A DNA stretch of 64,000 nucleotides, taken from assembly GCF_044647545.1 (NCBI RefSeq), contig NZ_CP172818.1; one strand, given 5' to 3'. Of this stretch, positions 32,046 through 38,503 are shown piece by piece; within the stretch, counting starts at the first letter, position 1; each line of letters begins with the position of its first letter. Origin of the DNA: Escherichia coli (lineage in GTDB: Bacteria > Pseudomonadota > Gammaproteobacteria > Enterobacterales > Enterobacteriaceae). A program made the translations under genes and the position numbers. The notes beneath the pieces were generated by a model. It saw only the letters and a program-made list of their open reading frames with translations, did no database searches and had not been told where the DNA came from.

Positions 32046-35294
<3,249 letters not shown>

Positions 35295-35322
35295 AGGCAG
35301 TACATTAAAACAAGGAGCGGCA

Positions 35323-36234
35323 ATGTATTACGGGTTTGATATTGGTGGAACAAAAATTGCGCTAGGCGTGTTTGATAGCGGTCGGCAGTTGCAGTGGGAA
35401 AAGCGGGTGCCGACACCGCGTGACAGCTATGACGCATTTTTAGATGCAGTGTGTGAGCTGGTAGCTGAAGCTGACCAACGTTTTGGCTGTAAAGGCTCTG
35501 TCGGCATCGGTATTCCGGGAATGCCGGAAACAGAAGATGGTACGCTGTATGCCGCCAATGTCCCCGCTGCCAGCGGTAAACCGCTGCGTGCCGACCTGAG
35601 CGCACGTCTTGATCGCGATGTACGCCTTGATAACGATGCCAACTGTTTTGCCCTTTCAGAAGCCTGGGATGATGAATTTACTCAATATCCACTGGTGATG
35701 GGGTTGATTCTCGGCACCGGCGTTGGCGGTGGGCTGATTTTCAACGGCAAACCGATTACCGGTAAAAGCTACATTACCGGCGAGTTTGGCCATATGCGTC
35801 TGCCGGTTGATGCGTTAACCATGATGGGGTTGGATTTCCCGTTACGCCGCTGCGGCTGTGGTCAGCATGGCTGCATTGAAAATTATCTGTCTGGTCGCGG
35901 TTTTGCGTGGCTGTATCAACACTATTATCATCAACCGTTGCAGGCTCCTGAGATCATTGCGCTTTATGATCAAGGCGATGAGCAGGCAAGGGCGCACGTT
36001 GAGCGTTATCTGGATTTATTAGCGGTTTGTCTGGGAAATATCCTGACCATTGTTGACCCTGACCTGGTCGTCATTGGTGGTGGCTTATCGAATTTCCCGG
36101 CAATCACAACGCAACTGGCGGACAGGCTGCCTCGTCATCTCTTACCTGTAGCTCGTGTTCCGCGCATTGAACGCGCGCGCCACGGTGATGCGGGGGGAAT
36201 GCGTGGTGCGGCCTTCCTACATCTAACCGATTAA
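35323..36234 (+). CDS. nagK: N-acetyl-D-glucosamine kinase NagK (303 aa from ATG at 35323)
   Basis: ORF track 35263..36234; [21 protein letters not shown]-family start. Confidence 0.92.
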
Positions 36235-36249
36235 TCAACAGAGGTTGCT

Positions 36250-37071
36250 ATGCTGTCGCGTCGGGGTCATCGGTTAAGTCGTTTTCGTAAAAATAAACGC
36301 CGTCTGCGCGAGCGTTTGCGTCAGCGTATTTTTTTCAGAGATAAAGTGGTGCCGGAAGCAATGGAAAAACCAAGAGTACTCGTACTGACAGGGGCAGGGA
36401 TTTCTGCGGAATCAGGTATTCGTACCTTTCGCGCCGCAGATGGCCTGTGGGAAGAACATCGGGTTGAAGATGTGGCAACGCCGGAAGGTTTCGATCGCGA
36501 TCCTGAACTGGTACAAGCGTTTTATAACGCCCGTCGCCGACAGCTGCAGCAGCCAGAAATTCAGCCTAACGCCGCGCATCTTGCGCTGGCTAAACTGCAA
36601 GACGCCCTCGGCGATCGCTTTTTGCTGGTGACGCAGAATATCGACAACCTTCATGAGCGTGCCGGTAACACCAATGTTATTCATATGCATGGGGAACTGC
36701 TGAAAGTTCGTTGTTCACAAAGTGGTCAGGTTCTCGACTGGACCGGAGACGTTACCCCAGAAGATAAATGCCATTGCTGCCAGTTCCCGGCACCCTTGCG
36801 ACCGCACGTAGTGTGGTTTGGCGAAATGCCACTCGGCATGGATGAAATTTATATGGCGTTGTCGATGGCCGATATTTTCATTGCCATTGGTACTTCGGGG
36901 CATGTTTATCCAGCGGCTGGGTTTGTTCACGAAGCGAAACTGCATGGCGCGCACACCGTGGAACTGAATCTTGAACCAAGTCAGGTCGGTAATGAATTCG
37001 CCGAGAAATATTACGGCCCGGCAAGCCAGGTGGTGCCAGAATTTGTTGAAAAGTTGCTGAAGGGCTTATAA
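36250..37071 (+). CDS. cobB: NAD-dependent protein deacylase (sirtuin) CobB, long form with Arg-rich N-terminal extension
   Basis: ORF track 273 aa; [14 protein letters not shown] sirtuin motif; internal Met (MEKPRVLVL, nt 36361) would give the short isoform. Confidence 0.9.
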
Positions 37072-37084
37072 AGCGGGAAGCATT

Positions 37085-37180
37085 GCCTGATGCGCTACGC
37101 TTATCAGGCCTACAAGGGGACGCAATTAATTGAATTTGCGGGTTTTGTGGGCCAGATAAGGCGTTCGCGCCGCATCCGGC
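37085..37180. repeat. REP/BIME palindromic repeat cluster
   Basis: gcctgatgcgctacgcttatcaggc and gccagataaggcgttcgcgccgcatccggc between cobB and ycfZ. Confidence 0.8.
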
Positions 37181-37208
37181 ATAATAGACGCACACTTTAC
37201 TGCCTCTT

Positions 37209-37997
37209 TTACCGTTTACTCGTCAATAACAACGCGGCAATAAACGTACAGACACCAATCAGCCCTGCCCAGAGCGGCGATATTCTGGTAATTGCAAAGC
37301 TATTATCGATATACAGGCATAAAGCCTGATAGCCCATATTGGCAACAGTCATCGCCACTGCAAACTTTAATGCATAATTAAGGCGCGTCGTGTAGTTAAA
37401 AAATGCCGTAAAGACGATGAATGCAACCGCCCAGGCAAAAAGGCCTAATGTCGTGGTACTGCCGGGAGGATCATTCTCCTGCTGTTGTCCGGGATGCGGA
37501 TAATATGTCAGTGGCGGCGTCGGTTGTTTTAATATCTGTGCTTGTAAAACAGCCAATGCATTATTGATTCCCTGATACCAGAGATCTACATGTAAATAAG
37601 CCAGAGTGTGATTTTCTACCAGAAGGCCGAGATGTTTATCGTCCATACTGCTTTCGACCTGGCCGTTGGTTATCATAATTAACCGTGGCTCGCGGGTAGT
37701 AAAGAGTAACAGAACACTTCCTTTTACATTACTCATTGAAGATGCCGCATGCGCCAGCATCGCTTTGCCATTTTGCCTGAGACTGGCTTCATTATTAATG
37801 TCGGGTAAAACCACAATAAACGGTACAACTCCGGTTTGTTGGCGAAAAAGTTCGGCTTTATGCGCGATCTCTTCAGCATCTGGTACAGTACCGGTAACAT
37901 CCGTAAAAAGTGTCTTCATTATTGGAATTAAGGGCTTACTGATTGCCGTCAGAGGCAGGAACATCAGTAAACTGAGCAGTATCATGATTTTTTTCAT
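37209..37997 (-). CDS. ycfZ: inner membrane protein YcfZ
   Basis: ORF track 262 aa; N-terminal signal/TM and C-terminal TM segments. Confidence 0.85.
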
Positions 37998-38455
37998 GGG
38001 CGGGACTTCCGTTTCCTGCGTGTCTTTTTAGAGGAGGGCATACTGATTAATAAACCGACGGCGATAAAAATAACGCCCATAATGCCGATAAACCCCCATT
38101 TAAAAAAATTAACCCACGGGTTATTTATCTCAGCCTTTTCAGGATGTCCTGGAGAATAATAAACATTAACTTTATCGCCTTCGCTGTCTTCATAAAAATC
38201 GCTGCCAATACTCGAATTGAAAATTAGCGTGTAATCTGGCGTCGGACGAAAGGCAACGACGGGATACCACGAACCATTTTTACCCGTGCGATGAGAATGA
38301 CTGGAGTGCCAGACGGTATCAACAATGACGCCTTCAGTATGAATCGCGTCTTTGCTATAGGTGAACTGGTTATAAAAGATAACAACAGAAATGAGGATCA
38401 GTACCAGACCGATACCGAAGAATATACGAAAGAAAACTTTACTGTCCTGACTCAT
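37994..38455 (-). CDS. ymfA: inner membrane protein YmfA (153 aa from ATG at 38455; ORF track extends to 38497)
   Basis: ORF track 37994..38497; two TM helices; 4-nt overlap with ycfZ. Confidence 0.8.
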
Positions 38456-38474
38456 TAGCCACATCCTTGCTAAA

Positions 38475-38503
38475 TAAAAAACGGGCGGTAATACCACCGC
38501 CCG
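38475..38503 (-). terminator. rho-independent terminator after potD
   Basis: minus-strand hairpin cgggcggtggtattaccgcccg followed by U-run (plus strand aaaaaacgggcggtaataccaccgcccg). Confidence 0.7.

Follow-up and report, generated by a model that had tools for sequence, protein, structure and literature searches.

The window analysed here is a stretch of 64,000 nucleotides from Escherichia coli (contig NZ_CP172818.1). On its forward strand, positions 36250 to 37071 hold an open reading frame with an ATG start that encodes 273 amino acids, as read from the sequence and the ORF translation. The gene order around the locus is lolE-nagK-cobB-ycfZ-ymfA-potD. The coding features of cobB are the following.

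36250 to 37071 including the stop, forward strand: the long ORF of cobB, encoding CobB-L (273 aa including the extension); the identical sequence in RefSeq is cobB, WP_000952736.1.
36361 to 37071, forward strand: the CobB-S ORF (236 aa), the sirtuin catalytic core from Met38, assigned from Pfam SIR2, the identity to PDB entries and the 'CobB-S' CDS of K-12.
36250 to 36360, forward strand: the stretch coding for the extension, 37 Arg-rich residues; according to PMC6209979 it also contains the CobB-S promoter.

The gene is E. coli cobB, encoding an NAD+-dependent protein lysine deacylase of the Sir2 family. The protein matches the NCBIfam equivalog NF001755 ('Sir2 family NAD+-dependent deacetylase') with 597.9 bits over residues 1-272, extension included (cutoff 318 bits), and the Pfam family SIR2 (PF02146) with 183.6 bits over residues 48-221 (cutoff 24 bits). 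From residue 39 or 40 to residue 273 it is 100% identical to the crystal structures of E. coli CobB, 1S5P and 6RXJ. G48-A49-G50-I51-S52 (GAGxS), H147 and C155/C174/C176/C177 are all present and are invariant in 30 orthologues. We take these residues to be the NAD-binding motif, the catalytic histidine and the four cysteines of the zinc ribbon, following established knowledge of sirtuins and structure 1S5P. A 1.1-kb region covering the locus is present in 5403 of the 5426 complete E. coli genomes, where it is annotated nagK-cobB-ycfZ, and it is 100% identical in several strains, including FDAARGOS_497 and ST648, in which the CDS is the same 273-residue WP_000952736.1. Judging from its identity to the characterised K-12 enzyme, the CobB of the window should be an active deacylase. 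As the isoforms of CobB, the main protein deacylase of E. coli, differ in binding of polyphosphate (polyP) and DNA, in oligomerisation and in regulation, the right annotation of both starts matters for acetylome work.

The first-pass annotation described an arginine-rich N-terminal extension of 37 residues in front of an internal alternative start, and related the two to the long and short CobB isoforms of the literature. The sequence is exactly as quoted there, 37 residues and then the 20 that follow. The extension contains 12 Arg, 3 Lys and 1 His (15 Arg and Lys together) and is followed by Met38, encoded by the in-frame ATG at 36361-36363, and the next 19 residues onward. At the protein level it is identical to the extension of K-12. 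RefSeq gives two CDS for the gene (b1120) in K-12 MG1655. The long one spans 1179520-1180359, and the other, 'CobB-S' (1179631-1180359), starts 111 nt further downstream, at the Met that corresponds to Met38. Two starts are thus annotated in the reference, and both isoforms have been detected in E. coli (PMC6209979, PMC12926920). A cobB with two isoforms is already published and part of the K-12 reference annotation; the observation is correct and it is not new.

For the comparative analysis we used 80 Enterobacteriaceae loci from one scan of species-representative genomes, in which the match spans approximately the full length of the protein, with complete coverage of residues 1-273 in 74. 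The dN/dS values were obtained from 70 ungapped orthologues of 273 codons, i.e. 69 of these loci and the window. The pooled dN/dS of the extension is 0.12 for codons 2-31 and 0.16 for codons 2-37, compared with 0.04 for the core. In the same 70 orthologues the diversity at third positions of the extension is 0.39 versus 0.11-0.15 at positions 1 and 2, an excess of about three-fold. The extension is therefore translated and constrained, although less tightly than the core. In an alignment of 30 species thirteen of its positions are invariant.

The long start is preceded by a ribosome-binding site.

36240 to 36244, forward strand: Shine-Dalgarno AGAGG of the long start, with 5 nt between it and the ATG downstream, and another 5 nt between it and the nagK stop (36232-36234) upstream.

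An ATG with a Shine-Dalgarno-like purine-rich core (GAGG, GGAG or GGGG) in the same place is found in 80 of the 80 other species. Together with the low dN/dS, the clear third-position excess and the near invariance of thirteen positions, this argues against an over-called start, in which Met38 alone would be used and the upstream stretch would be a 5' leader open by chance. Such a reading would fit the crystal constructs, which begin at residues 39/40, and the finding that CobB-S is catalytically sufficient and more active (PMC10965786). However, the curated equivalog model NF001755 spans the extension, and a species of 31.5 kDa is recognised by an anti-CobB antibody (PMC12926920). For Salmonella, the N-terminal peptide of the long form or its acetylated version has been reported (PMC8603916, PMC12299546). 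An over-called start is poorly supported, and we give it almost no credence. A chance ORF was rejected as well, on the NF001755 match through the extension and the purifying selection on it across the 70 orthologues.

The internal start is conserved too. At Met38, 76 of the 81 sequences have ATG. In the other five (codon 38/39), three Citrobacter (L018, L020, L022) have GTG and two sequences have a non-start codon, GTA in Yokenella regensburgei (L064) and ATA in a Klebsiella MAG (L070). This suggests that the last two may be lineages with the long isoform only, as is reported for Erwinia. Erwinia-type CobB reportedly exists as the long isoform only, without a usable internal start; its sirtuin core is the same as that of the protein in the window and likewise carries an Arg-rich extension. 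The cobB of the window keeps the ATG at Met38. Upstream of ATG 36361 a canonical Shine-Dalgarno sequence at the usual spacing is lacking; a GGAAG ends 2 nt before the ATG.

Synonymous diversity along the gene was measured among sequences sharing the majority residue in the 70 species. The region with the lowest values flanks the internal start.

36322 to 36372, forward strand: codons 25-41, with the lowest synonymous diversity in the gene in 9-codon windows, flanking the internal start.

The nine windows starting at codons 25-33 are among the 12 lowest of 265, and the other three are found at codons 1-12 (36250-36285); the sequences are phylogenetically related and this ranking comes with no formal significance test. 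At codons 30, 32 and 42 Arg is encoded by the rare AGA, which is conserved; CGN codons are used for the other Arg residues. The two troughs probably reflect a constraint at the nucleotide level, from an embedded promoter and/or the translation-initiation region of CobB-S; an internal promoter would fit the trough at codons 25-41.

The conservation of the internal start also bears on how the short form is made. It could in principle arise by proteolytic trimming of CobB-L in a flexible linker instead of initiation at Met38; the lack of a good Shine-Dalgarno sequence before ATG 36361 would fit, and the linker predicted as disordered at residues 32-41 (see below) would be a plausible protease site. 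However, ATG or GTG is kept at the Met38 position in 79 of the 81 sequences, with the most constrained synonymous sites of the gene around it. Further, in K-12, constructs that had 30 nt of upstream sequence or only the long ORF made CobB-S and no CobB-L, so that the short form is made independently of the long one (PMC6209979). Trimming is poorly supported, and we regard it as very improbable.

These constructs come from the work of Umehara et al. 2018 (PMC6209979), who expressed C-terminally His-tagged cobB with nested upstream regions and detected two bands in E. coli. [quoted passage not shown] Shortening it to 30 nt, or to none in front of the long ORF, left CobB-S as the only band, and a construct that began at Met38 gave no product (PMC6209979). 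The authors concluded that the CobB-L promoter lies within nagK, between -417 and -30, and the CobB-S promoter within cobB, between +1 and +111. They predicted the corresponding boxes with BPROM, at -347..-319 and +51..+83, respectively (PMC6209979). Transferred to the window, these boxes are the following.

35903 to 35931, forward strand: candidate promoter of the CobB-L mRNA inside nagK, TTGCGT-N17-TATCAT, equal to the BPROM box at -347..-319 (PMC6209979); identical to K-12 and below the threshold of our consensus scan.
36300 to 36332, forward strand: BPROM-predicted -35/-10 region of the CobB-S transcript, +51..+83 (PMC6209979); identical to K-12 apart from a synonymous change at 36303 (T in the window, C in K-12).

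Both boxes are candidates, as they are BPROM predictions inside experimentally delimited intervals. Over the whole stretch from -417 to +111 the window differs from K-12 at 7 nucleotides. Only two of these lie between the nagK stop and Met38: the one at 36303, which falls in the predicted box of the CobB-S promoter and is a synonymous CGT/CGC difference in codon 18, and a T/A difference at 36235, in the 15-nt spacer between nagK and cobB. A run of seven T is found at 36329-36335 (ATT TTT TTC, Ile27-Phe28-Phe29) in the region coding for the extension, overlapping the TATTTT at the end of the internal promoter box predicted in the literature. The run is possibly a -10-like element or a homopolymer prone to slippage.

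It is possible to account for both isoforms without an internal promoter, if alternative translation initiation on a single nagK-cobB or cobB mRNA makes them both. A 2026 paper in NAR, which found species of 31.5 and 26.7 kDa in anti-CobB Western blots of MG1655, ascribes them to 'alternative translation start codons' (PMC12926920). Our sigma-70 consensus scan of 35200-37300 found no promoter-like site, inside cobB or elsewhere in that interval, and terminators at chance level only; an earlier study cited by Umehara et al. had found promoter activity absent in -400..+151 (PMC6209979). However, promoter-less plasmids with the long ORF alone made CobB-S, whereas those with the ORF starting at Met38 made nothing (PMC6209979). 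The low synonymous diversity, moreover, reaches about 13 codons upstream of Met38, which is beyond the needs of a ribosome-binding site. We consider translation alone unlikely, and the two mechanisms are not mutually exclusive. The main text of a preprint on ribosome profiling with retapamulin does not mention cobB. The share of CobB-S that comes from an internal promoter, as opposed to internal initiation on the longer mRNA, is the main uncertainty; the consensus scan finds no promoter, and no well-spaced Shine-Dalgarno precedes ATG 36361.

To obtain a structural view of the extension we used AlphaFold2 with a 30-sequence alignment. The core is predicted well, with pLDDT mostly 80-98. In the extension, residues 2-31 are modelled with low confidence as one helix (pLDDT 51-68 as block means), and residues 32-41 as a disordered linker. 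According to this model the extension is a basic segment that is probably helical. In a simple Eisenberg calculation, a crude measure, the maximum hydrophobic moment of the extension is not above that of shuffled versions, and the idea of an amphipathic helix was dropped for this reason.

The functions of the extension are known from related proteins. For MG1655, polyP and dsDNA are bound by CobB-L and not by CobB-S, and the authors credit this to the arginine-rich N-terminus (PMC12926920). In Salmonella, CobBL (273 aa) and CobBS (236 aa) are both active, the short form more so, and the N-terminal domain mediates oligomerisation and tighter binding of Zn2+ (PMC10965786). The long isoform is less active when it is N-alpha-acetylated by YiaC/NatB (PMC8603916, PMC12299546).

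The CobB of Salmonella enterica shares with that of the window the lengths of both isoforms, the 37-residue Arg-rich extension, the KGL end and the nagK-cobB arrangement. The two proteins are about 90% identical and differ by several substitutions, for example MQSRRFHRL... and a Met-Met pair at positions 37-38 in the Salmonella protein. The isoform biology, with two transcription starts, acetylation by NatB/YiaC and oligomerisation, has been established with the Salmonella protein. The K-12 protein (b1120; NP_415638.3 for the long form, YP_010051180.1 for CobB-S; 1S5P) has the same gene, locus, extension and internal Met as the window.

Taken together, we propose, with a probability of roughly 93%, that one reading frame gives two products at this locus, CobB-L from ATG 36250, with an mRNA that begins in nagK, and CobB-S from ATG 36361, largely with an mRNA that begins in the region coding for the extension, and that the extension is a module for polyanion binding and self-association that is regulated by acetylation. 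In this scheme CobB-L (273 aa) would be translated from behind the conserved Shine-Dalgarno sequence and transcribed from the promoter inside nagK. CobB-S (236 aa) would start at the in-frame Met38, at least partly by way of a second promoter in the first 111 nt of cobB, and both isoforms would carry the complete catalytic core. The Arg/Lys-rich head of CobB-L, probably a long helix joined by a flexible linker, would bind polyanions, mediate self-association and serve as a regulatory handle, in line with polyP and DNA binding, oligomerisation and inhibitory N-alpha-acetylation of the K-12 and Salmonella proteins (PMC12926920, PMC10965786, PMC8603916, PMC12299546). That both isoforms are made, where the promoters lie and what the extension does would carry over from literature on K-12 derivatives and Salmonella. 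The present analysis itself shows the ORF and its identity, the coding constraint on the extension, the conservation of the two starts and the nucleotide-level constraint near the internal one. We infer that the strain of the window behaves like K-12, because the extension is identical at the protein level and the region from -417 to +111 holds only the 7 nucleotide differences given above.

At the other end of the gene the window and K-12 differ. The first-pass annotation read the stop as TAA, which is what the sequence has, and left it undecided whether the C-terminal end matches the reference length. Aligned to the reference CobB, the N-terminus agrees in every amino acid and the C-terminus does not, with 273 residues in the window versus 279 in K-12.

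37069 to 37071, forward strand: TAA stop, of which K-12-type strains lack the T at 37069.

In the alignment to K-12 the window has one extra T, which completes the TAA. K-12 reads TTA-AAA-GCG-GGA-AGC-ATT-GCC-TGA instead and gains six codons, KAGSIA, before a TGA equivalent to 37088-37090 of the window (K-12 L001 10340-10360). The missing T therefore gives isoforms of 279 and 242 aa in K-12, versus 273 and 236 aa in the window. The K-12 protein used in most studies carries a lineage-specific tail of six residues that is absent from the strain of the window.

O157:H7, UTI89, M15 and the divergent EC42405 all have the TAA form. In a search with exact 30-mers the K-12 type was found in 1703 genomes, about 31% of the complete E. 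coli genomes. In an evenly spaced sample of the ranking it made up 12 of 40 rows. The first 30-mer of the TAA type was found in 94 genomes, which made the allele look rare; this was rejected, as nearby SNPs split the TAA class and two further 30-mers added 1843 and 1097. The total of 3034 TAA genomes is a lower bound, since about 650 genomes that have cobB stay unclassified owing to other SNPs nearby. The delta-T 30-mer with GGC-TTA-AAAGC had zero matches.

Outside E. coli, 69 of the 80 Enterobacteriaceae loci encode exactly 273 aa and 75 end in KGL, an ending also seen in Salmonella, Citrobacter, Enterobacter and most other genera examined. As the KGL/TAA ending is the one of most E. coli and of the other genera, the state of the window is ancestral and in the majority, and that of K-12 is derived. 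The K-12 alignment, the allele counts in E. coli and the other genera together answer the question of C-terminal length: the common ending, which is ancestral, is that of the window, and K-12 has the variant one.

Nearly all of the biochemistry of E. coli CobB concerns the atypical tailed allele, and one could speculate that the tail is functionally meaningful and that codons 25-41 with their AGA codons form an element regulating the isoform ratio, beyond a simple promoter or ribosome-binding site. We find this doubtful. The population view of the stop polymorphism and the profile of synonymous constraint are the only additions to the known picture, and neither alters it.

The first-pass annotation placed REP elements directly after the stop, which is essentially right.

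37085 to 37113, forward strand: REP element 1, starting 13 nt after the stop; the K-12-type ORF ends within it.
37147 to 37180, reverse strand: REP element 2, opposite in orientation to REP 1, with which it makes a BIME-like pair.

The elements were searched for with REP consensus patterns. REP/BIME elements are imperfect palindromes of about 30-35 nt that are multicopy and often come in inverted pairs. The arms here are inverted palindromes and the sequence is multicopy; for a query including the REP region, the median number of matching places in an E. coli genome is 14. The pair folds with -52.6 kcal/mol (z = -3.5).

Beside the REP pair there is a further polymorphism. The ycfZ-ymfA pair (37209-38497 in the window) is present in the window and in K-12, and absent from O157:H7 SS TX 313-1 (L003) and EC42405 (L006). 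In these two strains potD follows directly after cobB, at 1073-1983 and 1073-1979 of the respective loci.
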